A model generated the notes under the pieces. The model was not told the origin of the DNA, did not search any database, and was given only the letters and a program-made list of their open reading frames with translations. 64,000 nucleotides of DNA. Origin: a virus (Duplodnaviria; Heunggongvirae; Uroviricota; Caudoviricetes). The stretch is taken from the IMG/VR virus record IMGVR_UViG_2571042690_000019, one strand, 5' to 3'. The stretch's first letter is position 1; every line of letters starts with the position of its first letter. This document shows positions 1 through 42,715 of the stretch, one piece after another. Position numbers and translations under genes: made by a program.

Positions 1-1914
1 ATGAGTGAGGCAGAAGCCCGCCCGACTAACTTTATCCGTCAGATCATCGATGAAGATCTGGCCAGTGGTAAGCACACCACAGTACACACCCGTTTCCCGC
101 CGGAGCCGAATGGCTATCTGCATATTGGCCATGCGAAATCTATCTGCCTGAACTTCGGGATCGCCCAGGACTATAAAGGCCAGTGCAACCTGCGTTTCGA
201 CGACACTAACCCGGTAAAAGAAGATATCGAGTATGTCGATTCGATCAAAAACGACGTAGAGTGGTTAGGTTTTCACTGGTCTGGTAACGTCCGTTACTCC
301 TCCGATTATTTTGATCAGCTCCACGCCTATGCGATCGAACTGATCAATAAAGGCCTGGCGTACGTTGATGAACTGACGCCGGAACAGATCCGCGAATACC
401 GCGGCACCTTGACGCAGCCGGGTAAAAACAGCCCGTACCGCGATCGCAGCGTTGAAGAGAACCTGGCGCTGTTCGAGAAAATGCGTACCGGCGGTTTTGA
501 AGAAGGTAAAGCCTGCCTGCGTGCGAAAATCGACATGGCTTCGCCGTTTATCGTGATGCGCGATCCGGTGCTGTACCGCATTAAGTTTGCTGAACACCAC
601 CAGACTGGCAACAAGTGGTGCATCTACCCGATGTACGACTTCACCCACTGCATCAGCGATGCGCTGGAAGGTATTACGCACTCTCTGTGTACGCTTGAGT
701 TCCAGGACAACCGTCGTCTGTACGACTGGGTACTGGACAACATCACCATTCCTGTTCACCCGCGCCAGTACGAATTCTCGCGCCTGAATCTGGAATACAC
801 TGTGATGTCCAAGCGTAAGCTGAACCTGCTAATTAAGTTTGCTGAACACCACCAGACTGGCAACAAGTGGTGCATCTACCCGATGTACGACTTCACCCAC
901 TGCATCAGCGATGCGCTGGAAGGTATTACGCACTCTCTGTGTACGCTTGAGTTCCAGGACAACCGTCGTCTGTACGACTGGGTACTGGACAACATCACCA
1001 TTCCTGTTCACCCGCGCCAGTACGAATTCTCGCGCCTGAATCTGGAATACACTGTGATGTCCAAGCGTAAGCTGAACCTGCTGGTGACCGACAAGCACGT
1101 TGAAGGCTGGGATGACCCGCGTATGCCGACCATTTCTGGTCTGCGTCGTCGTGGTTACACTGCGGCTTCTATTCGTGAGTTCTGCAAACGCATTGGTGTG
1201 ACCAAGCAGGACAACACCATTGAGATGGCGTCACTGGAATCCTGCATCCGTGAAGATCTCAACGAAAATGCGCCGCGCGCAATGGCGGTTATCGATCCGG
1301 TGAAACTGGTTATCGAAAACTACCAGGGCGAAGGCGAAATGGTTACCATGCCGAACCATCCGAATAAACCGGAAATGGGCAGCCGTCAGGTGCCATTTAG
1401 CGGTGAGATTTGGATCGATCGCGCCGATTTCCGCGAAGAAGCTAACAAGCAGTACAAACGTCTGGTGCTGGGTAAAGAAGTGCGTCTGCGTAATGCTTAC
1501 GTCATTAAGGCAGAACGCGTGGAGAAAGATGCCGAAGGCAATATCACCACCATCTTCTGTACTTATGACGCCGACACCTTAAGCAAAGATCCGGCAGATG
1601 GTCGTAAAGTGAAAGGCGTTATTCACTGGGTGAGCGCGGCACATGCGCTGCCGGTTGAAATCCGCCTGTACGATCGTCTGTTCAGCGTGCCGAACCCAGG
1701 TGCTGCGGATGATTTCCTGTCGGTGATTAACCCGGAATCGCTGGTGATCAAACAGGGTTTTGCTGAACCGTCGCTGAAAGAAGCGGTAGCGGGTAAAGCA
1801 TTCCAGTTTGAGCGTGAAGGTTATTTCTGCCTCGACAGCCGCCATTCTACGGCGGAAAAACCGGTATTTAACCGCACCGTTGGGCTGCGTGATACCTGGG
1901 CGAAGTTAGGTTAA
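1..1914 (+). CDS. glnS: glutamine--tRNA ligase (GlnRS) carrying an in-frame 84-codon internal tandem duplication
   Basis: 637-aa ORF; class I aaRS HIGH-type motif (PNGYLHIGH) and VMSKR motif; E. coli GlnRS-like throughout but about 83 aa longer than the canonical ~554 aa because the block IKFAEHH...KRKLNLL occurs twice. Confidence 0.92.
580..1083. repeat. exact tandem duplication, 2 x 252 bp, inside glnS coding sequence
   Basis: nt 580-831 and 832-1083 are identical apart from the junction base; ORF-track peptides 587..787 and 839..1039 are identical. Confidence 0.9.
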
Positions 1915-1937
1915 TAGGTATTTCGCCACATAAAAAA

Positions 1938-1966
1938 GTAAACGCCGCTACTGCGGCGTTTTTTAC
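1938..1966. terminator. bidirectional Rho-independent terminator between glnS and the phage methyltransferase gene
   Basis: CGCCGC-TACT-GCGGCG hairpin flanked by an A-run upstream and T-run downstream. Confidence 0.6.
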
Positions 1967-4257
1967 TTCATTATTGCAATTATATCGTTAGCAACTACAC
2001 GTTTTGACGCCTTGCAGGACACCGACCGTCTGGCTGCCATATGATGTACTTTAAACCCGTTTCCTTCATATAGTTCACGGATGTTTGGCGCACCACTATT
2101 TGTTATCACTACCTTAGCGCCGCGCTGGTGGGCTTCCACCAATAGAGATACCAGCCGTTTCTGTTCGTCGAAACGGAAGCTATTTCCTGAATAACTGGTA
2201 AACCCTTCTGTATCCGGCAGCGGTTCATACGGCGGATCGCAAAAAATCACATCGCCTTCACCAGCCGCCTCGATGACGCCAGCAAAGTCACCTGATACAA
2301 AGGACGTGTTTTTGAGTACGTCATCAGCCAAAAATGCCTCCATCTCTGCATGTGGGAAGTAGGGCGCTTTGTATTTGCCATACCCCACGTTGAACTCGCC
2401 ATTTTGGTTGTACCGCGTTACGCCATTAAAACAGTGCCGATTAAGGTACAAAAAGGCGGCAGCATGATGTAGCTGGTCATACTCTCCTCTGTTAAATGCC
2501 TCACGCACTTCGAGGTAAGCGTCAGCGTTGTTGTAATTTTGGAAAAAACTATATGACAGCGTGACGAGCGAATGTCCTTCTCGCTGCAATGTCTGATAGA
2601 AGTTAATCAGGTCACCGTTAATATCATTAAGCAGGTTGTGGCGAAATCCTGCATTCGTAAATACAGAACCGCCACCAACGAACGGTTCTATTAACCGCTT
2701 GCCGTGTGGTAGATGCTCAAGCACTGTAGGCAACTCTGAGAATTTACCGCCTACCCATTTGAAGATCGGACGCTCATATTCATCCGGAGTCCGGAGTTTT
2801 CTTGTGTAGGTAATGGTATTTATTTTTTTTGGCTGTTTAGCTTCCACAGTCGCAAGAATGCGACACCCAATCCATTGCATAACAGGAACTGCCATGCTGT
2901 TGCCAATCGCTTTGTAACGCGGCCCGTCAGCAGCGAGCATCGCGGCCTCTTCTTCGCTTAAATCTGGATAGTGATTGCGAAGGTATGCCAGTTCATCTGA
3001 GGAAATTGTTTTACGCTTTTCCGTAGGGATCAACGTATGCCCATCAGGAAAACCTTGCAGCCTTTCACATTCGACAGGGGTAAGACGGCGGACAGCTACT
3101 TCTGCGTTTCTTACTTCATAGCAAACGGCTGTTGGATTTTGAGCCATTAGAGATGGTGAAGTATTCTTAGTTGCAGCATGTTGTGTACCGCTCATACGCT
3201 CAGGAAAAGCTAATGTAACAAGATGCTCATGGCTTTCTTGCTCACGCGCCCGCAATGTACCATGCCCCTCTGACCAAAAACCTGCTCCTGTGCTGCTAAA
3301 AACGGCAAGGTCAGTGGCATCTTTAAAGTCTCTTGCCTTTACTGTCGATGCGGTTTCATCGTCAATATATTCCCCAAATGCCGCCATCCTGAAAGCGTTT
3401 ACGGCTTTCGTCGATTTCATACCGGGGGGCATGTCAGCGTGTAGGCATGGATTTAGGCTTTCGCCACTGATTGCAGCGCCATTTGCAATAATGGCGGAAG
3501 CGATTTCCTTCTTTTTTCGGCTCGGCGCAATATTCCGGCGCACGCCTTCGAACTCAAAAAGTATCGTTGCGGGATCGAGGTCTGTTCGAGCACTTGCGAC
3601 AACAAACACGCGTCGGCGTCGTTGCGCCACTCCGAAGTATTGGGCATCAAGGATTCTCCAGGCCACTTTTCGCTGCGGTCCATAAATACAACCACACTGC
3701 GGCCACTTTGGAGCATGGCAACTGGTTTTGACATCCCACCGCCAGAACGCGTTACTTTTTCGCGATTCAGGTCGAGCACCTGGTTCGAATGGCGCATCTT
3801 CTCCAGCCAATCCGGCAAGGAAACATCCGAAGGCGTTATCTGCCGATGACAAGACTCCTGGGACATTTTCCCAGACGATAACGGCTGGTTTGAGAAATGA
3901 CTCAGCCCGTTTGTCGTCAATTGCATTTGCAAGCTCCACATACTTTAAAGTTAGCGCGCCACGCTCATCATCAAGCCCACCACGTAATCCAGCGATACTG
4001 AATGCCTGACAAGGTGTTCCCCCGACGAGCACATCAGGGGATTCGATTTCCCCAGCCAGGACTTTTTTGGCAAGTTTTGTCATATCGCCAAGGTTGGCGA
4101 CATGGGGCCAGCGGTGCGCAAGAACGGCAGATGGAAAAGGCTCGATTTCAGCAAACCACGCCGGACGCATACCCAACGGTTCCCAGGCAATGCTCGCTGC
4201 TTCAATTCCACTGCAAACTGAACCATATCTAAGGTTAACGTTCTGCTTCACCACCAA
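1963..4257 (-). CDS. dmt: bifunctional DNA methyltransferase: N-terminal C5-cytosine MTase fused to C-terminal Dam-like N6-adenine MTase
   Basis: N-terminal part has [12 protein letters not shown] (PC motif), ENVPG and C-terminal RLQGFPD C5-MTase motifs; C-terminal ~280 aa align with E. coli Dam ([19 protein letters not shown]). Symbol by analogy to the P1 hrdC-dmt pair; domain order relative to P1 Dmt not verified. Confidence 0.8.
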
Positions 4258-5140
4258 CGGCCTCCACTAGCGAAGTGAACATCGCGGATAATTCAGCAGT
4301 AAACAGGATAAAGTCAGCGTCAAATCGTTGCGCAACATCCTCTCGATCAATATCGTCGTTCTGGTCGTACAATTCGTCGCTGAACGACAAAGCCTTGATA
4401 CTCATATCGTCATTCAGTCTGAAAAATGCACGGTCTTGCCAGTTAACCGCAACTGTGGTTGCAACCTTACCAGCTTCTATATGACTCATGATCTCGTCGG
4501 ATAGCAGGTCCACTTTTTTGCAGCGGACCGCGCCGCCATCATCAAGCAATGCTTTTAAGGTCGCTTCCTCACCGGCACGGAAACCGTTCGGGAAGCCATT
4601 TTTAATCCAGCCAGTGATGGTCAGTTCTAATGGGTCTTTCGGAGAGAAGGGGACAACGGGCAAGCTGCCAAGCGATTTCCGTAACAAAGCCAGCTGATCC
4701 TCTGCTTTTTTAGCACTGCTGGCCTCGACAAAAACCAGATGATTGCTTCGGTCTATCAGGATTTTAGCTACTGATTTTCTCGTGAAAGCGCGAGGAAGAA
4801 GAGAGTGAAGCACTTCATCCTTCAGCGAATCTTTTTCGGTCTTCTTCAGCTTTCTGTCTTGCTCTTCTTCAAGTTTCAGGATTTTTTTCTGTAACTCTTC
4901 TTTGAGTACTTGAGAAGGTAGGATTTTTTCCTCTCGTTTATGCTGCATCAGAAGAAAACCCTGGTATTCATGGGTGAGGTTGTCGCCAAGAACGGGGGTC
5001 CAACCAGCTTTAGCCATATCCTGAGAACCGCATGGGGTAAACACAAACTTGCTAAGGGCTGCATTTACTTCTGCAGTATCCCAGCTAACTTCGCGTGAAA
5101 GACGATAGATGAAGATATTTTTGAAAGCGACTGATCTCAT
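4235..5140 (-). CDS. rdgC: RdgC-like recombination-associated protein (phage homolog)
   Basis: 301 aa, colinear similarity to E. coli RdgC ([60 protein letters not shown]). Confidence 0.88.
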
Positions 5141-5147
5141 GTCTCAC

Positions 5148-5191
5148 CATTTGTGTTAGAAAATACATATTAATTATCTAACACAAATGGG
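5148..5191. promoter_or_regulatory. inverted pair of operator-like motifs (14-bp perfect inverted repeat CCATTTGTGTTAGA / TCTAACACAAATGG, 16-bp spacer) upstream of the rdgC-dmt operon
   Basis: perfect inverted repeat read directly; each arm carries the TCTAACA core of the dispersed motif. Confidence 0.5.
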
Positions 5192-5199
5192 TGCATTTT

Positions 5200-5853
5200 C
5201 TATCCTTTCTTGAAATCGAAGTTGCCAGCAGTGGCCTGAAAGGTTCCCCCAGCCTTGAAAGCTATGTCCCCGTTAGCGGTGACAGCTATATTTTCCCCAT
5301 TAACATTGATGTTGTTGGCTGATTTGACGTTAACACTCCCTCCTGCATTCACGATTACATCAGCCGGACCAATGATATATATCTGCCCGGACTCATTCAT
5401 GCCAATCCTTGAGCCTGCTGCCGTATTGGCAATTTCATAGCCGCCACCAGCAGTTCGTACTTCAAGAATATTGTTGCGGTGAATAACGAAGTCTTTCGTT
5501 GCTGAGATTTGGGGGCGGGGAGGTGCTCCATCTACTTCCGGCGGCGTCCAGCCGTTGCCTTTGCCAGATGCTTCTGGTGCAACGTTTGGAATTCCTCCCG
5601 GTGCATCCTGAGCGGCACCAACTATCATTGGGCGTCTGGTGTCTATTCGACCGTTAACATCTAAATAAGGAAACTCTACCCAGACCAGGTCACCTTTGAC
5701 TGTAGGTACAAAAGCGTTCCCGATGGGTAACTGGTATTCCGCCCAGGGTAGATCGTCATCAGGAACGCCATTCCAGTCAGGTAAAACACGGACTTGAGCA
5801 CGCATAAGCCCTGCCGGGTGCACAGTTCCAACAATTTGCGCTCTACGCTTCAT
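5200..5853 (-). CDS. hypothetical protein, glycine-rich C-terminal repeats
   Basis: 217-aa ORF in an operon of four stop/start-coupled genes; no family recognised. Confidence 0.55.
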   Translation of the reverse strand: MKRRAQIVGTVHPAGLMRAQVRVLPDWNGVPDDDLPWAEYQLPIGNAFVPTVKGDLVWVEFPYLDVNGRIDTRRPMIVGAAQDAPGGIPNVAPEASGKGNGWTPPEVDGAPPRPQISATKDFVIHRNNILEVRTAGGGYEIANTAAGSRIGMNESGQIYIIGPADVIVNAGGSVNVKSANNINVNGENIAVTANGDIAFKAGGTFQATAGNFDFKKG

Positions 5854-6830
5854 TTGTTAGGCACTCCCAATATCATTCGTGTTGTGTAGCCTACGCGGTC
5901 CTCAAAGTGCGCAACATTTTTTACTATCAGCTTACGGGGCATTGATTCATCAATGCGGTTTTCCTGGTCATAGCGGTATACGATAATCTCTATTACCATC
6001 CCCGGTTTTATATCAGGATTGCCTGCGACTTCTATATCCATTTTGGGGACGAGAGACAGCTGCATATTGCGAAGAGTTTCCATATCAGAGTCGGATATAT
6101 AACGTACTGGGAGTGAGCTATCGCCATATTCGACGTAGCCATCGGTCATGGAATACCCAACAAAACGATATTGATTCTTTGCTGTTGTCGCATGTTCCTG
6201 TTGGAGTAGGCGCATTTTGGACAAAGTGTATTCTGCTTTAGGGTTATTCCCCTCGTAGGTAAATGATGGCGTTTGCTTCATCAGATCAGCCAGGGTGTAA
6301 AAGTTAAATTCCCCCCGGCATACCCAACATAATGCACCTTTGTCTCGCGCTATCTCCGAAAGCATTTTTGACGGTTTGTCACCGGCATTCAGATGATATG
6401 TAACTGCGCGTTTTAGCACGCTGCTGGTAATTTTAAGCTTGCCGGAATATGCCTTGAATATAGCGTCTGGTGTTTTGTTGGTATGTAAATTTGTGCGCGG
6501 GGAGGGGATCTTAAACCTGCGCACGTCTTCACTGACAGCAATAACGGTAACAACATCACCAGCCAGCATTGCAGACGTAACAAAGAAATCTGTTTTAAAA
6601 GTGCCTGCATTACCGTTTGGATCGCCCATTTCAGCCACCAGCGATGCACCGTATTTGGCTTTCCAGTCATCAATTACGGTGCCGGTAGCGTCATGAATTT
6701 CCAGTTTTAGCAAAGGGGCTTTGAGGCTGGTTTTTTCTACATATACTGCGGTAAAAATCCAGTCTCGTGGCACTTTGTTATCGTTAATGAGCACTGACTG
6801 TAGAAAATATTGTTGTAACTCCTGGGCCAC
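5850..6830 (-). CDS. hypothetical phage protein
   Basis: 326-aa ORF, start overlaps upstream stop. Confidence 0.55.
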   Translation of the reverse strand: MAQELQQYFLQSVLINDNKVPRDWIFTAVYVEKTSLKAPLLKLEIHDATGTVIDDWKAKYGASLVAEMGDPNGNAGTFKTDFFVTSAMLAGDVVTVIAVSEDVRRFKIPSPRTNLHTNKTPDAIFKAYSGKLKITSSVLKRAVTYHLNAGDKPSKMLSEIARDKGALCWVCRGEFNFYTLADLMKQTPSFTYEGNNPKAEYTLSKMRLLQQEHATTAKNQYRFVGYSMTDGYVEYGDSSLPVRYISDSDMETLRNMQLSLVPKMDIEVAGNPDIKPGMVIEIIVYRYDQENRIDESMPRKLIVKNVAHFEDRVGYTTRMILGVPNK

Positions 6831-6833
6831 TTA

Positions 6834-7601
6834 TCACCCCATAGATATCGAGGTTTCGGTAATAATACGTTTTGCGTCCAACTCCCATGCTGTGATCACG
6901 TCTGCAATCACACTTATCGGCGCTTGTGTGGCATAAATACGCTCTTCTCCAATTGGTGCTGAAACATCCGTAAAGCCGACTTCTTTGGCATCCTGTATCG
7001 AGCAAATCAGCGGGACCGGAACACGAACAAGGTGAGTGGTTGCTTCAAATTGTGTACCTGTCATCAGGCGAAGCCGTGCGCCCAGCGAATTACACATCAG
7101 ACTCATGGTCGCTTTATCAGTTGCCATTAACGTAACGTCATACGTCAGAATGGCCTGGGTGTATTCCAGTTCTGCTAAAGGCATTCCGGTATCCGGTTCG
7201 CAAAAACTGGCTACTTTTTTGCGGTCAATCTGCTGATCATCGTTGATATAATTGATATCCATAGTGCGTGAGATATTGACCAGGGGGAGAGCATCCCGGT
7301 TAATGTTCTGGTTTTCAGGTTTTCTCCCTTGCCCGGCATTTGCGCGACGAACTGCTTTAAGAAACTCGATCGCATTGTCGAAACGGGCCACATAGACACG
7401 CTCTGCTGGTGGACGATTCAAGAATGACGCAAAGCGTTTTTCTTCCGGCGCGGGGGCCACCAGTAAGATATCAGAAAAAATGTTGCTGATTAGCGTCGCA
7501 AACGCGTTATCCACGTTTTCAAAGCCCGTGGTCTGGAATTTTCCTGTGCGTGAGGTTTGCCATTCACCTGTTCGCGCCAGGAGGGTTTTATTTGAAGTCA
7601 T
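6834..7601 (-). CDS. hypothetical phage protein
   Basis: 255-aa ORF in the same operon. Confidence 0.55.
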   Translation of the reverse strand: MTSNKTLLARTGEWQTSRTGKFQTTGFENVDNAFATLISNIFSDILLVAPAPEEKRFASFLNRPPAERVYVARFDNAIEFLKAVRRANAGQGRKPENQNINRDALPLVNISRTMDINYINDDQQIDRKKVASFCEPDTGMPLAELEYTQAILTYDVTLMATDKATMSLMCNSLGARLRLMTGTQFEATTHLVRVPVPLICSIQDAKEVGFTDVSAPIGEERIYATQAPISVIADVITAWELDAKRIITETSISMG

Positions 7602-8401
7602 TCGATCACTCCGTTTTGAGTCGTATCAAAATTCCTGGCTGGTATGCAGTAGTAAAGCGAACCAACATGCTGTGTGCCGTAGCTAAAAATACGGTGCACG
7701 TACCACCAGCGGCGGGCTACGCCGTTTACCATCTCTTCATTCCATTCAAGAATTGAGCCGACGGGGACGTTATTTGCTGCAATACGCAGAATCAGAACAT
7801 CATCGGTTAAGCCATCCTGCTCACCGTCTGCGTCAATCGCATGGAAAGAGTCACGCCCGTCCGGGTTATCCAGCACATAAACGATTTCAGGTTCCTGGTA
7901 AGTCAGTTCGCGTTGGTTGTTATCCAGTTCAGTGAATGACTCTTCTCCTGTTTCGTCGCTGACTACCCCATATGTGCCAACATCTGGTCGATATAAGAGA
8001 GCCTGAAACGCGTCTGGGCTGGATTCAATAATCAGCATCCAGTCTGCGCGGATTTGGTCGTTAAAGGCTTTATGCCCGTTATAGCGTGCTTTTAACTGTG
8101 GAGTCGGTTCTCTGCCAGCCAGGGAAGATGGAAGTATGGCTATATCTGATTCGCCAGCATCCGGAGTAAGGCCACCGTTGCTATCAGCAAAATTATCATG
8201 GCTATCAGCTTTGGCGGCGGGTTGCTCTTCCAGAATGCTGAATGAATCCGAACCGGTATTGCCATGTTCCGGCGCGCCTCCTGCATTCGCTTCAATCGGC
8301 GCTGGCGTTTCTCTCTGCGTGCTGTCATGTTCTGACTCCTTACTTGCCAGGTTTGCATCGTCAGCAAACCATTCGTCAAAACGGCCCATAAGCATCCTCA
8401 A
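7598..8401 (-). CDS. hypothetical acidic phage protein
   Basis: 267-aa ORF, Asp/Glu-rich N-terminal half. Confidence 0.55.
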   Translation of the reverse strand: MRMLMGRFDEWFADDANLASKESEHDSTQRETPAPIEANAGGAPEHGNTGSDSFSILEEQPAAKADSHDNFADSNGGLTPDAGESDIAILPSSLAGREPTPQLKARYNGHKAFNDQIRADWMLIIESSPDAFQALLYRPDVGTYGVVSDETGEESFTELDNNQRELTYQEPEIVYVLDNPDGRDSFHAIDADGEQDGLTDDVLILRIAANNVPVGSILEWNEEMVNGVARRWWYVHRIFSYGTQHVGSLYYCIPARNFDTTQNGVIE

Positions 8402-8485
8402 AGGTCGATCTGTCAGGTATCGAAAGGAAGATTTTCGGGAGATTGTGATTTTGGATGAAGGAGGGGGAATTCATAAAATGCACTT

Positions 8486-8506
8486 GCGCACAGTGCAACG
8501 GTGCGC
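8486..8506. promoter_or_regulatory. possible HigA operator palindrome (GCGCAC-N9-GTGCGC) upstream of higB
   Basis: inverted repeat about 45 bp upstream of the higB start codon. Confidence 0.25.
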
Positions 8507-8551
8507 TATAGTTATGGCATTCGGTAATCATCACGGAGGATCAAATGACTA

Positions 8552-8854
8552 ATGACCAAAAAAATTAACATAAAGGATTTCAGGGATGCGTGGCTTGATG
8601 ATTTTTTTGAATTTTCAACACCACATAGAAAGATACCTCCTGATATTCATATGACATTGTCACGGAAGTTGGACATTATCAATGCCGCAACTACCTGTAA
8701 GGATTTAAGATCACCACCAGGTAATCGGTATGAGGAACTGTCAGGGAAGCTAAATGGCTATTCATCAGTAAGGGTGAATAAGCAATATAGGTTAATTTTT
8801 AAGTGGGTTAACGGAAAGGCCGAGGACTTGTATCTCGACCCTCACAAATACTAA
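8552..8854 (+). CDS. higB: type II toxin HigB (RelE/ParE superfamily)
   Basis: 100 aa; PPGNRYEELSGKLNGYSSVRVNKQYRLIF matches the HigB killer family; toxin gene precedes antitoxin as in higBA. Confidence 0.82.
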   Translation: MTKKINIKDFRDAWLDDFFEFSTPHRKIPPDIHMTLSRKLDIINAATTCKDLRSPPGNRYEELSGKLNGYSSVRVNKQYRLIFKWVNGKAEDLYLDPHKY

Positions 8855-8924
8855 AACAGATACCCGGTTACGGACCGGGTTCTGACCAGAGTCCACTTAA
8901 TACGCACGCTAGTAAGGGCAAAAA

Positions 8925-9263
8925 ATGAAACAGGCAACCAGAAAACCGACGACCGTAGGTGATATCCTGCTGTACGAATACCTGGAGCCGTTAGAGCTGA
9001 AGATCAACGAGTTAGCAGAAATACTTCATGTTCATCGTAACACCGTAAGCGCTCTTGTTAATAACAATCGTAAGCTAACGATGGATATGGCATATCGCCT
9101 GGCAAAAGCATTCGATACTTCTGTAGATTTTTGGATTAATCTTCAGACCGCAGTAGATCTGTGGGAAGTCGAAAATGATATGCGCGTCCAGGAAGAGTTA
9201 AGTCGTATCAATACTGCTGAAAAATTTATTTCTCAGCGGAACCTGAATAAAAAAGCAGCCTGA
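8925..9263 (+). CDS. higA: type II antitoxin HigA (XRE-family HTH)
   Basis: 112 aa; HTH segment LKINELAEILHVHRNTVSALVNNNRKLTMDMAYRLAKAFDTSVDFWINLQ typical of HigA/VapI. Confidence 0.82.
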   Translation: MKQATRKPTTVGDILLYEYLEPLELKINELAEILHVHRNTVSALVNNNRKLTMDMAYRLAKAFDTSVDFWINLQTAVDLWEVENDMRVQEELSRINTAEKFISQRNLNKKAA

Positions 9264-9286
9264 TATAGTAAAACACATACAAAAAG

Positions 9287-9314
9287 CCCACTTAGCAAGT
9301 GGGCTTTCCTTTGT
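9287..9314 (+). terminator. Rho-independent terminator after higA
   Basis: GCCCACT-TAGCA-AGTGGGC hairpin followed by TTTCCTTTG. Confidence 0.6.
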
Positions 9315-9319
9315 AATTA

Positions 9320-9520
9320 ATGAACATTAAACCTATCCGTACAGAACAAGATTATGAGGCCGCACTGCGTGCGGTCGAACCGATGTTCGATAACGAACCG
9401 GAAATGAATACTCCGGAAGGTGATTTCTTTGAGGTTATGAGTCTTCTCATTGAGGAGTACGAGAAGAAACATTACCCAATTCAACCACCATCACCTGTTG
9501 AATCTTTTAACTATCCATAA
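9320..9520 (+). pseudogene. 3'-truncated XRE-family antitoxin-like gene (N-terminal domain only)
   Basis: 66 aa resembling the N-terminal part of HTH antitoxins (TEQDYEAAL..., NTPEGDFFEVMSLLIEEYEKKHYPI) but ending before any HTH domain, exactly where the low-GC gene begins. Confidence 0.4.
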
Positions 9521-9541
9521 TAAAAGTAATCAGGATAAGCT

Positions 9542-10270
9542 ATGATGTCAGAAAAAGTTAAAGATAATCCGTCTATAAATGAAACAGAACTAAAATCATT
9601 TTCTGAAATAATAAAAGATAAAATATTTAACAAGGTTTTTGCATATGTTGTCATTTCTTTTCTAATTTTTAACTGGAAGGATATTTTAATTATATTAAAG
9701 TCAAAGGACGACATCCTATATACATTATCTATTGTTTCTGTTGGTGGTAATGTCCCGTTCATTGATAATTGGATTGTATCCCCGTGGGTTTATCACGTTG
9801 TAATCCCATTTATTTATGGAGTATTTGCATCTGTGTTAGCTCCTGTTCTCACACTGAAGATATCTAAGCTAACAAGTAAATTATACACTGAAATAAGATA
9901 TTTAGATGAAGTTGCTGATTATGATAAAAGAATAGAATTGCAAAGAAAGAAAACAAAGTTAAATCAAGCAACCAATGACGCTAAATATTCAAAACAAATC
10001 TTAGATGAAAATGAAAATAAACTTAATGACTTGGTTACGAAACAGCGAGAAATTTGTGGCGCGATAAAACTATTGCATACTGATGTTGGCAGTATTATTG
10101 AACTATATAAAAATAAGGGGGTTAGCATTGAATCTCCGCAAGATTTATGTGATTTTATAGTCGCTATAAAAAGCACATCATTCTATAATGATGACAAGCA
10201 TTTTAATAAATTGGTGTCTGATATTTCCAGTTTGTTTGATAATACTGGAATTGATCTTTCAAAAAAATGA
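9542..10270 (+). CDS. low-GC hypothetical membrane protein (two predicted TM helices plus C-terminal coiled-coil region)
   Basis: 242-aa ORF with AGGA RBS, own terminator; visibly AT-rich versus flanks; hydrophobic segments VFAYVVISFLIFNW and VYHVVIPFIYGVFASVLAPVLTL. Confidence 0.65.
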   Translation: MMSEKVKDNPSINETELKSFSEIIKDKIFNKVFAYVVISFLIFNWKDILIILKSKDDILYTLSIVSVGGNVPFIDNWIVSPWVYHVVIPFIYGVFASVLAPVLTLKISKLTSKLYTEIRYLDEVADYDKRIELQRKKTKLNQATNDAKYSKQILDENENKLNDLVTKQREICGAIKLLHTDVGSIIELYKNKGVSIESPQDLCDFIVAIKSTSFYNDDKHFNKLVSDISSLFDNTGIDLSKK

Positions 10271-10276
10271 AAGCCC

Positions 10277-10316
10277 AGCATAAACTACTAGGCTATGTGT
10301 GGTTTATGCTTTTTTT
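10277..10316. terminator. bidirectional Rho-independent terminator
   Basis: AGCATAAAC...GTTTATGCT hairpin followed by TTTTTT; lies between convergent genes. Confidence 0.55.
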
Positions 10317-11497
10317 ACATACTCCATGAACATTTTTTCAGCTTGTGCTGGTGGTGTTCCAGCCATGACAAGCGCATCAATGAACGCCTGCTTCTTCAGT
10401 GCGAACTGATCGGCAAGGCGTTGCTGAAGCTCCTTGTTTTTCTGTTTCTCACGTTGCAAGGCCGCTTCTTTTGCTGCCGCCCGTTTTTTCTGTGCATCTG
10501 ACAACTTTCTGGCCTTGGTCAATTGGTCACGTAGTTTGTCGATCTTGCCGTTGTCCTTTGCCAGTTTTGTACTTAAAGCTGCCTGGCGCTTCTGATAGAG
10601 CCTCCATTCGCGTTTGGCGGCTTCAACGTTCGTTTTACTGCTACGATTGCGATTAAACTCCTTCTCGTCTTCTTTTGAGAAGTGTTTGGTTGTACGGCGG
10701 CGATCGTCACCAAATGCAATTTGCGTTGCAGCCTTTTGTAGCGCACGAGCAATACTCATTTGCCAACTGGCGGACTGTAACCGCGTCATTGAGTGGATCA
10801 CGTGTTTACAGGCGACGCCTTGCAGCTTCGGGTTGCGAACTTTTGGATAGGCGTATTCTTTTGGCGGTGCCAGGGCAAAGTTACCCGCAGTGGCGATGTA
10901 ACGATACCAGTATTGATGACGACCACAGTCACAATCGAAAGACACTCGCCCGGCGCACAGTGATTTAGTGATTTTGAGAGCTGATTTATCGTCTTCTGCG
11001 ATGTCATCAACCATCTGATCCCATTCTTCAAAGCGTATCCGGACGATATGGTGCTGGTGGACGGATATATCCGATGCTTCTACGCGGATATTAATCACAT
11101 TGTGGCGAAGAGATACGGGTGTAGCTCTTTTGATACCAGATCCGTCATCCACGGCGTTATTTGCACGCTTAATATCGATTGCCTGGCTGGATGCCACCAG
11201 CTGGGCGTATGTGATGCCAGCCGTCTTGCTGTCATATTTTTCGCGCGTTTTACTCCGTAGCTTTTCGAAACCTTTCAGGTCGTCTCGCGTGAAGAACGTG
11301 CCGCCTTTTTTCTTCCCTAACTTGAGAATATCTTCGGCGGATTTGTTCCTCAGTCTACCTGGCGTCAGCGTCCGGTGAGCTTGTCGGCGCTTACGGGTTT
11401 GTTCTTTCCTGATAAGGTCGAATAAACGCGTGAAGTCCTTAGAGGACAGGCCGTCAGTGATATAGCGCCCGTCCTGGTTTTTCAGGAAATCAGGCAT
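10304..11497 (-). CDS. hypothetical protein with SWIM-type zinc-finger-like motif and Lys/Arg-rich coiled-coil C-terminus
   Basis: 397 aa; CxC-x(n)-CxH pattern (FDCDCGRH ... VACKHVIH). Confidence 0.6.
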   Translation of the reverse strand: MPDFLKNQDGRYITDGLSSKDFTRLFDLIRKEQTRKRRQAHRTLTPGRLRNKSAEDILKLGKKKGGTFFTRDDLKGFEKLRSKTREKYDSKTAGITYAQLVASSQAIDIKRANNAVDDGSGIKRATPVSLRHNVINIRVEASDISVHQHHIVRIRFEEWDQMVDDIAEDDKSALKITKSLCAGRVSFDCDCGRHQYWYRYIATAGNFALAPPKEYAYPKVRNPKLQGVACKHVIHSMTRLQSASWQMSIARALQKAATQIAFGDDRRRTTKHFSKEDEKEFNRNRSSKTNVEAAKREWRLYQKRQAALSTKLAKDNGKIDKLRDQLTKARKLSDAQKKRAAAKEAALQREKQKNKELQQRLADQFALKKQAFIDALVMAGTPPAQAEKMFMEYVKKA

Positions 11498-11819
11498 TTT
11501 CTATCTCCGGTTCCGCGCTTGCGTAATCACGGATCTTGTTCCTCAGCCATGCCACATCAGGAAGAGTTAACGTGGTCCCTGCGGGCATTTCTTCAATTTC
11601 TGACTCATGGCCCACCAGCACCCGGAATACCCAGCGCAAATCTGCATTGCCATACGCCCTGTAGGCTGCAAGGTCTGAACGATATACTTCATCAATCTTT
11701 ATCGTGTACTGGAAATTATCAGAGTGATACTCCGATACCCGCTTAATCATTTCCTGGTGAAACAGCGCACGAAAAATATCGTCTTCAATGTACCTATCGT
11801 CGAGTCTGCTATAGCCCAT
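11490..11819 (-). CDS. hypothetical protein
   Basis: 109-aa ORF whose stop overlaps the start of the SWIM gene. Confidence 0.5.
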   Translation of the reverse strand: MGYSRLDDRYIEDDIFRALFHQEMIKRVSEYHSDNFQYTIKIDEVYRSDLAAYRAYGNADLRWVFRVLVGHESEIEEMPAGTTLTLPDVAWLRNKIRDYASAEPEIENA

Positions 11820-12011
11820 AACAAAGCCTCTCAGTCATAACCTGGGGGAAACTGTATGCAGGGTGTGAAATGCGAGAAACAGACAGGCCACCAGTTCAGG
11901 GGGATGTGGTTCATAAATCCCCTCACTGGTGACAAGTGACTTTCATTAATCTTTATGCGGGGGCCAGCTTCATTTGCTGGCATTAGATTAAAAATCAAAC
12001 GGAGTAAATGA

Positions 12012-14473: not shown

Positions 14474-15652
14474 TTAACTAACAATCCAGTCCATAGCAAT
14501 AACATCCTCTGGAGCTAAATCAATAGCATGGATTTTCCCGTCACGGATGGTGCGCCAGTGCTTTCGTGATCCACCTTCGGGCCACACCCATATACCTTCA
14601 GGCCAGGAAGAACGACGACACACTGTTGCGTATCCAGTCCTGATCTTCTCTCTGACGGTATGTAGTGACAGATTATCCTTTGGGCTTTCAGGCACAGGAT
14701 GGTGGATTGCCTGAAACATCCCCATCTTTGGATGATACCAGCGTTTATTGCGTGGTTCTGCCTCCGACATCACCTGCTTAAAGGCTTTCCGGAAGGGGGC
14801 ACGTGATCCACCTTCGGGCCACACCCATATACCTTCAGGCCAGGAAGAACGACGACACACTGTTGCGTATCCAGTCCTGATCTTCTCTCTGACGGTATGT
14901 AGTGACAGATTATCCTTTGGGCTTTCAGGCACAGGATGGTGGATTGCCTGAAACATCCCCATCTTTGGATGATACCAGCGTTTATTGCGTGGTTCTGCCT
15001 CCGACATCACCTGCTTAAAGGCTTTCCGGAAGGGGGCCAGGGCCACAATGGAACGTCGCGCAAGCAAACCGTCGGGAGTTAAAAACTCATGCGTATCTGT
15101 GGGGATCCGGTAAGCGTTGACCAGGTTGCGGCATTTGGCTTCAGTCAGGCCGCATTTCGCCGCTAACTGGCGATAGCCAATGTAGCCTTCCGGAATATTG
15201 CCTTTCTTTATTTGCTCGACGGTTTCAGCGACTTTGGTCACTTGTGCCGATACTTCGGCTACCTGGGCATTAACGGCGTTGATCCGGCGTTCATGCTCAA
15301 GATGCATTTGCGCCATTTCAGCCAGAATTTCGGCTTTTGATTTTAACTGTACCCGGGCATTCTCCAGTTCGCGCCAGCGGTCCACCAGCCGGGCGGTGAA
15401 TTCGGGAGAGAGCTGCGCGACGACGACAATACTATCGCGCTTGCCTTGCTCGCCTTCGAAGAAATAGGCTTTTGTGTATTTATTAGGGCTAAGTGATTGA
15501 TTATTCTCAACTGTAGCCAATGGCGTATGTTGGATAACTCCTTTAGCAACAAGTCTTTCGATGCTGCGTTTAACATCAGAGTGACGACTTCCCACCAGTT
15601 CCGCGATCTCAATGCTGGTCATTGTCGCTTTTTGAGAGATGGACAGATTCAT
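14474..15652 (-). CDS. phage antirepressor-like protein (Rha/Ant family) fused to a C-terminal domain; contains a 79-codon in-frame tandem duplication
   Basis: N-terminal SIEIAELVGSRHSDVKRSIERL and central region homologous to ORF 54851..55558; C-terminus homologous to separate ORF 54654..54854. Confidence 0.7.
   Translation of the reverse strand: MNLSISQKATMTSIEIAELVGSRHSDVKRSIERLVAKGVIQHTPLATVENNQSLSPNKYTKAYFFEGEQGKRDSIVVVAQLSPEFTARLVDRWRELENARVQLKSKAEILAEMAQMHLEHERRINAVNAQVAEVSAQVTKVAETVEQIKKGNIPEGYIGYRQLAAKCGLTEAKCRNLVNAYRIPTDTHEFLTPDGLLARRSIVALAPFRKAFKQVMSEAEPRNKRWYHPKMGMFQAIHHPVPESPKDNLSLHTVREKIRTGYATVCRRSSWPEGIWVWPEGGSRAPFRKAFKQVMSEAEPRNKRWYHPKMGMFQAIHHPVPESPKDNLSLHTVREKIRTGYATVCRRSSWPEGIWVWPEGGSRKHWRTIRDGKIHAIDLAPEDVIAMDWIVS
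14565..15038. repeat. exact tandem duplication, 2 x 237 bp, inside the antirepressor gene
   Basis: two consecutive identical 237-nt units; peptide APFRKAFKQV...WPEGGSR repeated twice in the ORF. Confidence 0.9.
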
Positions 15653-25526: not shown

Positions 25527-25703
25527 ATGAAAAACCGTAAGGCAAAACGACTTTTTTTACAGCGACCTGTGCGTGTGGTGGAGCTGGTTATTAGCAACCA
25601 TAAGATAGCGGTACTCCATCCATTTGGTCAGGTGGCTTTTGCCGCAAAGCGTAAGCCTACTGCGTCACAGAACAGGCGGAAGAAAGGGTACGCTGTAAGA
25701 TGA
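25527..25703 (+). CDS. small basic protein (58 aa), paralog of next gene
   Basis: manual translation MKNRKAKRLFLQRPVRV...; stop overlaps next ATG. Confidence 0.3.
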   Translation: MKNRKAKRLFLQRPVRVVELVISNHKIAVLHPFGQVAFAAKRKPTASQNRRKKGYAVR

Positions 25704-40796: not shown

Positions 40797-40872
40797 TGGT
40801 GGCCCCTACCGGACTTGAACCGGTGACCGTGCGATTATGAGTCGCCAGCTCTAACCACTGAGCTAAGGGGCC
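40797..40872 (-). tRNA. tRNA-Ile (anticodon CAU, ileX-like) or tRNA-Met
   Basis: GGCCCCTTAGCTCAGTGGTTAGAGC...CTCATAA...GGTTCAAGTCC...GGGGCCACCA; cloverleaf folds; near-identical to E. coli ileX as recalled. Confidence 0.75.
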
Positions 40873-40881
40873 AATTAGTTT

Positions 40882-40995
40882 TTATTTTCGACGCCTGAGA
40901 TTCTTCGCTACTTGTTCTACTCCGTATACGATCACAAGCAGAAATAGCAAAGACCATCCAGGGTTCTTATCAATATACGTCCAAAAATCCATCAT
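40882..40995 (-). CDS. possible small membrane peptide (36 aa)
   Basis: manual translation MMDFWTYIDKNPGWSLLFLLVIVYGVEQVAKNLRRRK; ATGA overlap with upstream ORF. Confidence 0.25.
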   Translation of the reverse strand: MMDFWTYIDKNPGWSLLFLLVIVYGVEQVAKNLRRRK

Positions 40996-41156
40996 GAGTT
41001 CCTGAACGCAGCTTTAATAATCGGCAATAGCAATACCACAGCTACTGAAACCAGTGCCCCATCAGCCAACACCGACATCACTTTGCTGGTGAAATCCACC
41101 AGCACGGACAAAACGAGAAAACCAATGGCGCACGCAATACGCGCCTTGCCAATCAT
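40992..41156 (-). CDS. possible small membrane peptide (52 aa)
   Basis: manual translation MIGKARIACAIGFLVLSVLVDFTSKVMSVLADGALVSVAVVLLPIIKAAFRNS; TAATG overlap with TerB-like gene stop. Confidence 0.35.
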   Translation of the reverse strand: MIGKARIACAIGFLVLSVLVDFTSKVMSVLADGALVSVAVVLLLPIIKAAFRNS

Positions 41157-41590
41157 TACAGATAATCTTCCACACGAAGGCCCAAACGACGGCCTACTTC
41201 TTCCAGTACTTTGTGTTCTGCTGGCTCGATTTCACCGTCCGCTTCTGCAATCGTCAGCATGTTAACGAATACTTCTTCCGCTTCTTTTGGATCATTTTTG
41301 ATATCTTCAATTTCGCGAAGGATATTCATGCGACCAACACGGAAACCAGCTTCCAGTTGCTCAGTAAAACGGGTGATTGTTGCGGTAATTTCGTTGCCAA
41401 AATGACTTAAGCGAGGATTAGAGCGGACAAGCTGATCAAGTTTCGCTGTTTCTTCCTTTTCGATTTCACCATCTGCGGCAGACACCAACAAACAGCCACC
41501 GATAATGGCCTCCATCAGATCGCGATTCTCAACCCTTTTCAGCTCTACTTTTGCTGAAGCGACTTTCTTACCGAAAAATTTACCGAACAT
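41156..41590 (-). CDS. TerB-like protein (tellurite-resistance TerB fold; P1 tciA-like)
   Basis: 144 aa with repeated ADGEIE-type acidic motifs; located in the tRNA cluster as tciA is in P1. Confidence 0.5.
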   Translation of the reverse strand: MFGKFFGKKVASAKVELKRVENRDLMEAIIGGCLLVSAADGEIEKEETAKLDQLVRSNPRLSHFGNEITATITRFTEQLEAGFRVGRMNILREIEDIKNDPKEAEEVFVNMLTIAEADGEIEPAEHKVLEEVGRRLGLRVEDYL

Positions 41591-41857
41591 TGGTTATCCC
41601 TCAATAAACATGACGTATTTATTAGGTTGCGGTGCCTGGTGCCTCCAGGTGACGTTAACCAGTTAACAATTAACGCCGGGATGTTTGACTTAACCACTAA
41701 GGAGGATTGTTTTAACTGTTCCGCGTGCGCATAGCCGCATTCACCGCAATGGTAAGAGCACTTGGCTGGCTGGGCGGCGATGACGCCTGTACGCATTTGG
41801 TGATCCGGTTCTGCTTCCGGCATTCGCTTAATTAGCCAAATACTCTTAACGTTGCAC

Positions 41858-41944
41858 TGGCGGAGAGTAATGGAATCGAACCATCATCGCTTGCGCAATG
41901 GGACGGTTTTCAAGACCGTTTGAGCACCATGCTCCCTACTCTCC
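41858..41944 (-). tRNA. tRNA-like gene, possibly tRNA-Ser (anticodon UGA), non-canonical A8
   Basis: 7-bp acceptor stem, anticodon arm ACGGT-CTTGAAA-ACCGT similar to E. coli serT, long variable arm, TTCGATT T-loop, 3' CCA; D-arm atypical. Confidence 0.35.
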
Positions 41945-42277
41945 AGTGATTGTGATGGTCGGTGCTGAACTCCGACACAGGGTTGTAGCAAGCCCCGCAA
42001 AGCGCGCACTACTGTAGTTGCGGCACATCAGCCTGTGCATTCACCACAATGTTGAGAACACTGGTTGTCACGCTGCAACGCAACATTTATTCGTAGATTG
42101 GGATATGACCCCGTTACGCCAGTGTTCTCAACGTTATAGTGCCGGTTACGGTTCCGGCCAGGCCTCTTCCTCAACGGGGTGTTCTCCATACGGACTACCG
42201 TTTATTGGTCGTTCCTGCGGTTTATGTTGTGAAGCCAGATGCTTATCTTCTGGTTGCTTCAAAGAGCTGCACTTCAT

Positions 42278-42345
42278 CACAACGGTAAGAGCACTCGATG
42301 CATTTAAGCCAAGCCCCATAAGGGAGAATGCCCTTACCTGTTGTG
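42278..42345. repeat. conserved-stem hairpin element (CACAACGGTAAGAGCAC ... GCCCTTACCTGTTGTG)
   Basis: imperfect inverted repeat sharing stem consensus with elements at 42474..42560 and 42917..42991. Confidence 0.5.
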
Positions 42346-42473
42346 TTGTGATGACCGGTGCTGATCTCCGGCTTGCGGTTATTTCAGACTCTCACGGGCG
42401 TTTAATTGCCCCGCCGAACAGCTCTTTTCCGCAATAGCTGCAATGTCTTTCGCGCATCAGCCTGCGCATTCAT

Positions 42474-42560
42474 CACAACGGTAAGGGTACTTCGTAGGGA
42501 TTCGAACCCTCTGCCAAGCTCGGCGATCTCCGACGTCGCAAAATACCCTTACCTGTTGTG
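42474..42560. repeat. conserved-stem hairpin element enclosing a tRNA-like T-arm fragment (GGGATTCGAACCC)
   Basis: CACAACGGTAAGGGTAC ... TACCCTTACCTGTTGTG inverted repeat, immediately downstream of tRNA-Thr on the minus strand. Confidence 0.5.
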
Positions 42561-42561
42561 C

Positions 42562-42637
42562 TGGTGCCGATTAACGGACTCGAACCGCTGACATCCTGCT
42601 TACAAGGCAGGCGCTCTACCAACTGAGCTAAACCGGC
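42562..42637 (-). tRNA. tRNA-Thr (anticodon UGU)
   Basis: GCCGGTTTAGCTCAGTTGGTAGAGC...CTTGTAA...GGTTCGAGTCC...CGGCACCA cloverleaf. Confidence 0.8.
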
Positions 42638-42639
42638 AT

Positions 42640-42715
42640 TGGCGATGGTGGATGGATTTGAACCATCGACCCGTTGATTAACAGTCAACCGCTCTAACCG
42701 CTGAGCTACACCATC
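42640..42715 (-). tRNA. tRNA-Asn (anticodon GUU)
   Basis: GATGGTGTAGCTCAGCGGTTAGAGC...CTGTTAA...GGTTCAAATCC...CACCATCGCCA cloverleaf. Confidence 0.8.

Follow-up and report, generated by a model that had tools for sequence, protein, structure and literature searches.

The apparent duplication inside glnS, the gene for glutaminyl-tRNA synthetase (GlnRS), in the 64,000-nt stretch of DNA that we analysed (hereafter the window) is almost certainly a contig overlap that was left unmerged at a scaffold join. Judged from the sequences compared below, the true glnS holds the segment once; a GlnRS with an 84-residue insertion is absent here, and the feature is a case of scaffold-join duplication, which is well known as a class. 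A sequence-only reading of the same DNA had described a tandem duplication and had named a very recent event, an assembly artefact or an engineered change as its possible source. It is the assembly artefact that is borne out, by an ambiguity code (N) at both of the junctions found, by the occurrence of the same build twice and by the single copy carried in relatives.

Anatomy of the repeat in glnS

The open reading frame (ORF) of glnS as deposited occupies positions 1..1914 of the window on the plus strand. It starts at the glnS ATG, which is the window start, stays open throughout and encodes 637 residues, in which residues 194-277 are identical to residues 278-361. TRF, run on the window, returned a single array at 580-1082 (period 252, 2.0 copies, 100 % matches, score 1006), and a repeat search gave two arms on the plus strand, 580..830 and 832..1082, each of 251 nt, 100 % identical (251/251) and with a start-to-start spacing of 252. 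The equality x[i]=x[i+252] is true solely for i=580..830. The DNA of the repeat consists of 251 nt, one odd base and 251 nt again, and the odd base, the A at 831, differs from both base 1083 (G) and base 579 (C). The earlier claim of an exact 252-bp tandem duplication at 580-1083 holds in that a long repeat is there, but its arms are 251 nt long with a spacer base at 831, and the two units cannot be identical over 252 nt, given the mismatch between base 831 (A) and base 1083 (G). The protein repeat nevertheless appears exact, because codon 829-831 is CTA in the window and CTG in all relatives and both encode Leu. A chance origin of an exact 251-nt repeat is impossible, this length being far beyond chance.

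Read as a scaffold join, positions 1..830 (plus strand) are the end of the left scaffold piece, which carries glnS nt 1-830 and is 100 % identical to the ST131 chromosomal allele; its final 251 nt, 580..830, are the first copy of the overlap, base 831 is the placeholder at the join, and 832..1082 are the first 251 nt of the right piece, that is, glnS nt 580-830 a second time. Once the overlap is merged, the gene is 553 codons long.

The principal rival to an unmerged overlap is a genuine, very recent, in-frame duplication of 252 bp in glnS, at which the assembler broke and which the scaffolder rejoined with an N. We consider it very improbable, for reasons given where the evidence is described, although the period is a multiple of 3 and leaves the ORF open, and a cell with another glnS allele could tolerate damage to one copy. 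A genuine duplication would show in reads the copy-to-copy junction ...CTGAACCTGCT-G-ATTAAGTTTGCT..., and the junction string diagnostic of duplicated copies in LAU-EC7 reads is ...AAGCTGAACCTGCTGATTAAGTTTGCT....

Ambiguity codes in the public record

An exact-protein look-up among ~15 billion proteins found the 637-aa product on one contig only, AYNG01000012.1 (542,286 bp; GCA_000506465.2), where it is GenBank ETE32223.1, 'glutaminyl-tRNA synthetase [Escherichia coli LAU-EC7]'; the window corresponds to positions 476,639-540,638 of this contig. Between record and window we found one difference over window positions 1-11,914, an N at 831, and one over positions 4,474-25,652, an N at 14801. The 35,652 nt of the record that were compared (up to window position 25,652) have no further ambiguous base, and each N is the exact centre of a long tandem repeat, of which the 64-kb window has just two, so that at both sites the ambiguity code lies exactly at the junction. 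Both N of AYNG01000012.1 within the compared 35.6 kb read A in the window, and because an N was shown as a base A, the earlier reader missed the tell-tale code. A real duplication junction would have a sequenced base at its boundary, whereas the record has an N there and the A of the window matches neither flank. The 84 extra residues noted earlier are thus present in the ORF as written, as the repetition of residues 194-277, but the join between the copies is an N placeholder and there is no real insertion. As a separate observation, window and public record do not agree letter for letter, and the swap of N for A conceals scaffold joins.

The second repeat, which is separated from the first by ~14 kb and sits in an unrelated gene, spans 14565..15037 on the minus strand and is built of 236 nt (14565-14800), the N at 14801 and again 236 nt (14802-15037). 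Its arms are 100 % identical (236/236), and it is the sole other long tandem repeat in the whole window. It falls within the ORF of a Rha-type antirepressor (14474-15652, minus strand), the length of which goes from 313 to 392 aa. The glnS and antirepressor repeats share an X-N-X build, in which X is 251 and 236 nt, respectively, with zero mismatches, and the appearance of this same build in an unrelated gene speaks against a genuine duplication in glnS. Since neither the junction base was sequenced nor the junction seen elsewhere (see below), and since the X-N-X build recurs, the idea of a very recent event loses its footing.

Relatives carry the segment once

A 60-nt probe across the glnS junction had no match in 5,426 complete E. 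coli genomes or in PLSDB, and a 43-nt exact junction pattern had none in GTDB representative genomes or IMG/VR. The junction of a genuine duplication was therefore found in independent sequence in none of these four collections, and the 637-aa protein was on one contig; that no other assembly or genome has the junction is a further point against such an event. The two phage D6 records have one copy each of the glnS segment, all glnS matches listed span 1748 nt for a 2000-nt query, which corresponds to a single copy, and a 553-aa glnS product is found in 12 draft contigs of the same plasmid lineage. Merging the overlaps restored the sequence of independent genomes at both sites: the merged glnS has 0 differences over nt 1-1358 compared with ST131 strain 81009, and the merged antirepressor site has 0 differences over 3,363 nt compared with an independent assembly (L014). 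From the relatives and the zero-difference merged sites, the single-copy versions are therefore the natural sequences.

The gene is an authentic GlnRS gene. As written, the 637-aa product matches the glnS equivalog TIGR00440 with 1233.5 bits (cut-off 425.8), with the match split into two stretches by the repeat, and one continuous match of canonical length (~553-554 aa) is obtained only after collapse. The HIGH motif is at residue 41; VMSKR is at residue 268 and, in the repeat, once more at 352. Collapsed to its 553 codons, the product resembles E. coli GlnRS (TIGR00440, a class I aminoacyl-tRNA synthetase) in its 553-aa length and in having HIGH and VMSKR, and the sole differences from the ST131 chromosomal GlnRS are D510E and the C-terminus, which reads KLG* here and KVGE* in ST131. 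Unlike E. coli GlnRS, the deposited protein has 637 aa, repeats residues 194-277 and has the plasmid allele at its 3' end. The repeated segment comprises what we take, from GlnRS structure, to be the KMSKS-type loop together with the latter half of the Rossmann fold. A genuine duplication of a segment with the VMSKR loop and half of the Rossmann fold is expected to damage the enzyme, which weighs against it. The earlier concern that an 84-aa insertion would perturb an essential enzyme does not apply here, as the junction is the scaffolder's N and not sequenced DNA.

How an unmerged overlap would have been formed

E. coli LAU-EC7 (WGS AYNG) is an ESBL-producing stool isolate from Lebanon, reported as a draft genome (PMC3931373) dated 2013. 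For this draft, paired MiSeq reads of 250 nt were put through the A5 pipeline, with '101 contigs contained in 77 scaffolds' as the outcome (PMC3931373). In A5, IDBA first makes the contigs; SSPACE then joins them into scaffolds and lengthens them, suspected misassemblies are broken, and a second round of SSPACE scaffolding follows (PMC3441570). The assembly is a scaffolded one, and the overlaps of 251 and 236 nt are at most about one read length, compared with the 250-nt reads. SSPACE would put a single N where the gap is non-positive, and GenBank keeps runs of fewer than 10 N inside a contig. Because the reads were of 250 nt and the scaffolding was that of A5/SSPACE, both repeats are best understood as overlaps between contig ends, roughly as long as one read, that the assembly left unmerged.

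In the sequence of steps that we propose, one piece of the A5 assembly would have ended at glnS nt 830 and the next would have started at glnS nt 580, and the scaffolder would have set the two side by side, leaving the 251-nt overlap unmerged and putting a lone N between them. SSPACE would be the source of this one-base placeholder for a non-positive gap, and the length of the overlap may come from read-length extension of the contig ends. The break itself may be due to the presence of glnS on both the chromosome and a plasmid. The right-hand piece starts at nt 580, directly after nt 579, where the chromosomal and plasmid alleles differ, and the longest stretch common to both alleles starts at nt 580 too (580-722, 143 nt), which suggests that two glnS copies in the genome caused the break. 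An identical process would have taken place 14 kb onward, with a 236-nt overlap. The annotator would then have crossed the N in glnS and produced a 637-aa 'GlnRS'; annotation crossed both joins because CTN (Leu) and CGN are unambiguous codons.

A fixed k-mer size was considered as the source of the overlaps and set aside, given that 251 and 236 fit no one k; 'about one read length' is the better description. We also discarded the possibility that the N-join is the point at which the sequence switches from chromosome to plasmid: both arms are of the chromosomal allele, and the switch is 430-530 nt farther right.

The two sites resemble negative-gap scaffold joins in short-read drafts in having identical, read-length arms around a lone N, in recurring within the record, in being absent from related genomes and in coming from a pipeline with a scaffolder and contig extension. 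They differ from them in nothing substantial; the one oddity is that both instances are in frame and give intact but lengthened proteins. The periods of 252 and 237 are both multiples of 3 and both ORFs stay open, which is a counterpoint to an artefact; if both are artefacts, this is a coincidence, with a chance of ~1 in 9.

A genuine duplication also runs against the behaviour of short-read assemblers, by which a 252-bp tandem is normally collapsed and not written twice, and there is no useful microhomology at its ends (...CTGTACCGC / ATTAAG versus ...AACCTGCT / GGTGAC, the slash marking the boundary). As for a microhomology-mediated duplication, GCTGTACCGC (before copy 1) and GCTGAACCTGCT (before copy 2) are loosely similar, but a crossover between them gives a period of 250 and not 252, and this route was rejected. 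A deliberately engineered insertion in glnS, which had been listed among the options, has nothing for it except the exactness of the copies and can be dismissed as vanishingly improbable, given that the source is the draft genome of a clinical stool isolate, the junction is an N, a second instance lies elsewhere and there is no vector or scar sequence.

Understood as an unmerged overlap, the repeat carries little biological weight, as GlnRS has no real insertion. It does matter for data hygiene: both ETE32223.1 (637 aa) and the 392-aa antirepressor came about because annotation ran across scaffold joins left unmerged.

A glnS gene with two parents

In the record, glnS is preceded by nagE, a D-threonate utilisation island (pdxA2, dtnK) and a DeoR regulator, all chromosomal, and over 3,080 nt this upstream flank together with glnS nt 1-579 has 100 % identity with many ST131-type chromosomes. 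The ST131 chromosomal sequence continues through glnS nt 1-1260, a stretch with 47 differing sites relative to the closest plasmid contigs (L019 and L020). It is followed by 98 nt that are identical in both parents (glnS nt 1261-1358; window 1513..1610, plus strand), within which the allele switches from chromosomal ST131 on the left to the L019/L020 plasmid type on the right. From glnS nt 1359 through 6.4 kb downstream there are 0 differences from L019/L020, and 16 sites within glnS differ from the chromosome. The plasmid-type 3' end of the gene (nt 1359-1662; window 1611..1914, plus strand) ends in ...WAKLG* and is 100 % identical to both L019 and L020. At nt 1260 the chromosomal type has A, and at nt 1359 and 1365 the plasmid type has G and C. 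Measured from the N-join, the switch is 430-530 nt farther right, in a piece that has no interruption. Because the 5' part is chromosomal and the 3' part comes from a family that always carries its own glnS, LAU-EC7 must hold glnS sequence from two replicons.

The designation of the gene as the essential glnS is in this way half right: nt 1-1358 and the upstream flank are the chromosomal ST131 locus, but the last 304 nt and everything downstream are those of a D6-like phage-plasmid. For the same reason, the answer that this is a plasmid copy and hence dispensable was rejected as the main one, since with nt 1-1358 and the flank being chromosomal the gene is not simply an accessory copy.

The glnS alleles of D6-like plasmids are themselves mosaic (L001, L002, L017, L018 and L019-L028 compared with L003 and L005). 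The glnS of pAPEC201603 has the K-12 chromosomal allele at all 12 variable sites in nt 237-663, and the D6 and p702_18_3 alleles have a 5' haplotype different from that of the K-12-like pAPEC201603. These patterns in the alleles suggest that there may have been repeated exchange between plasmid-borne and chromosomal glnS.

The junction between chromosome and phage-plasmid

Within glnS the record joins 476 kb of ST131-type chromosome to 65.6 kb of D6-like DNA. This fusion is probably a second misassembly, the D6-like element being really a free plasmid, and this is the reading we favour. Two routes could have led to it: either IDBA or SSPACE passed from the chromosomal into the plasmid copy through shared sequence, or partial conversion of the plasmid glnS to the host allele had created a repeat at which the scaffold passed from one replicon to the other. 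With the mosaic alleles as a basis, a partly converted plasmid allele would provide a long repeat between the replicons. The D6-type Dam segment is found in 101 of the 5,426 complete E. coli genomes, in all cases on plasmids and never on the chromosome. Likewise, the hybrid glnS occurs in no complete genome (the best match is 99.1 %, on plasmids), and neither does the reciprocal hybrid (best 97.6 %). Contigs of this plasmid lineage from short reads often stop within glnS, at nt 775 (L032), 1366 (L033) and 1303 (L035), and from these ends it is evident that glnS behaves as a chromosome/plasmid repeat for assemblers. Furthermore, the authors of A5 acknowledge that misassembled contigs 'occasionally' come from IDBA (PMC3441570), and the plasmid glnS alleles are visibly mosaic with chromosomal ones. 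Three observations do not sit easily with a misassembly: the switch is inside an uninterrupted piece, away from the N; the shared stretch is 98 nt only, which 250-nt reads should span; and a second contig, unannotated and 503,749 bp long, likewise encodes the collapsed hybrid protein.

It is possible, but in our view doubtful, that LAU-EC7 really has the D6-like phage-plasmid in its chromosome, the plasmid and chromosomal copies of glnS having recombined by one homologous crossover in nt 1261-1358. The mosaic is a clean one of two parents, with 0 differences on each side (ST131 for nt 1-1358; L019/L020 from nt 1359), the same hybrid protein is on the second long contig of 503,749 bp, and 1.66 kb at ~97 % identity suffices for RecA-mediated recombination. 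The record has what a Campbell-type plasmid integration would leave, a hybrid gene that is chromosomal at the 5' end and plasmid at the 3' end, followed by plasmid DNA. Unlike such an integration, it lacks the reciprocal junction, so that one of the two required junctions (the left one) is seen in the record, and no complete genome has a chromosomal D6-like element; the evidence that favours a misassembly counts against integration as a whole. If integration were nevertheless true, the conserved glnS 'moron' of D6-like elements could also provide them with a portable homology arm, both for entering the chromosome and for exchanging alleles with the host.

With ~97 % identity between E. coli chromosomes and D6-like phage-plasmids, glnS repeatedly misleads short-read assembly, and contigs break or jump replicon in it. 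Claims from draft genomes of chromosomal D6-like prophages or of hybrid glnS alleles need read-level support.

A protein of the reciprocal type, with a D6-like N-terminus and a chromosomal C-terminus, is present on 17 contigs of up to 424 kb, one of them in the draft of strain B2C.

The D6-like phage-plasmid DNA

From 1915 to 64000 the window is DNA of a D6-like (P1-related) phage-plasmid, with genes for a methylase, RdgC, tail and baseplate proteins and Ref, four tRNAs, a DarB-like ORF of 2278 aa and RepL; the contig ends 65.6 kb into the ~90-kb element. A glnS 'moron' has been reported for every D6-like genome (PMC6799933). The gene order glnS - dmt - rdgC - baseplate/tail genes is the same as in phage-plasmid D6 and D6-like plasmid prophages, which are relatives of P1, and the DNA identity to D6-like plasmids is 95-100 %. 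The difference is on the other side of glnS: the dmt/rdgC side is present, but upstream there are the chromosomal genes for DeoR, pdxA2 and dtnK, where 12 relatives have the plasmid genes orf61, parA-like, stbB and stbA (in plasmid order stbA-stbB-parA-like-orf61).

Four tRNA genes are encoded at window 40797-42715 on the minus strand (Met-CAT, Ser-TGA, Thr-TGT and Asn-GTT); a tRNA-Gln that would accompany the glnS of the element is absent among these four, and the same four amino-acid specificities have been reported for the D6-like plasmid pYU39_89. In another assembly, a P1/D6-type block (darA, ddrB, repL, darB-like) was found on a chromosome-sized contig of 4.69 Mb (L038; VDAT01000001.1); this may reflect either integration of a P1-like element or a further chimeric assembly. 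Finally, at window 1963-4251 (minus strand) Dcm-type and Dam-type methylase domains (PF00145 and PF02086) are joined in one ORF of 762 aa, whereas in phage D6 the methylase region is annotated as two ORFs, D6_63 and D6_64, and pAPEC201603 has the Dam part as a pseudogene.
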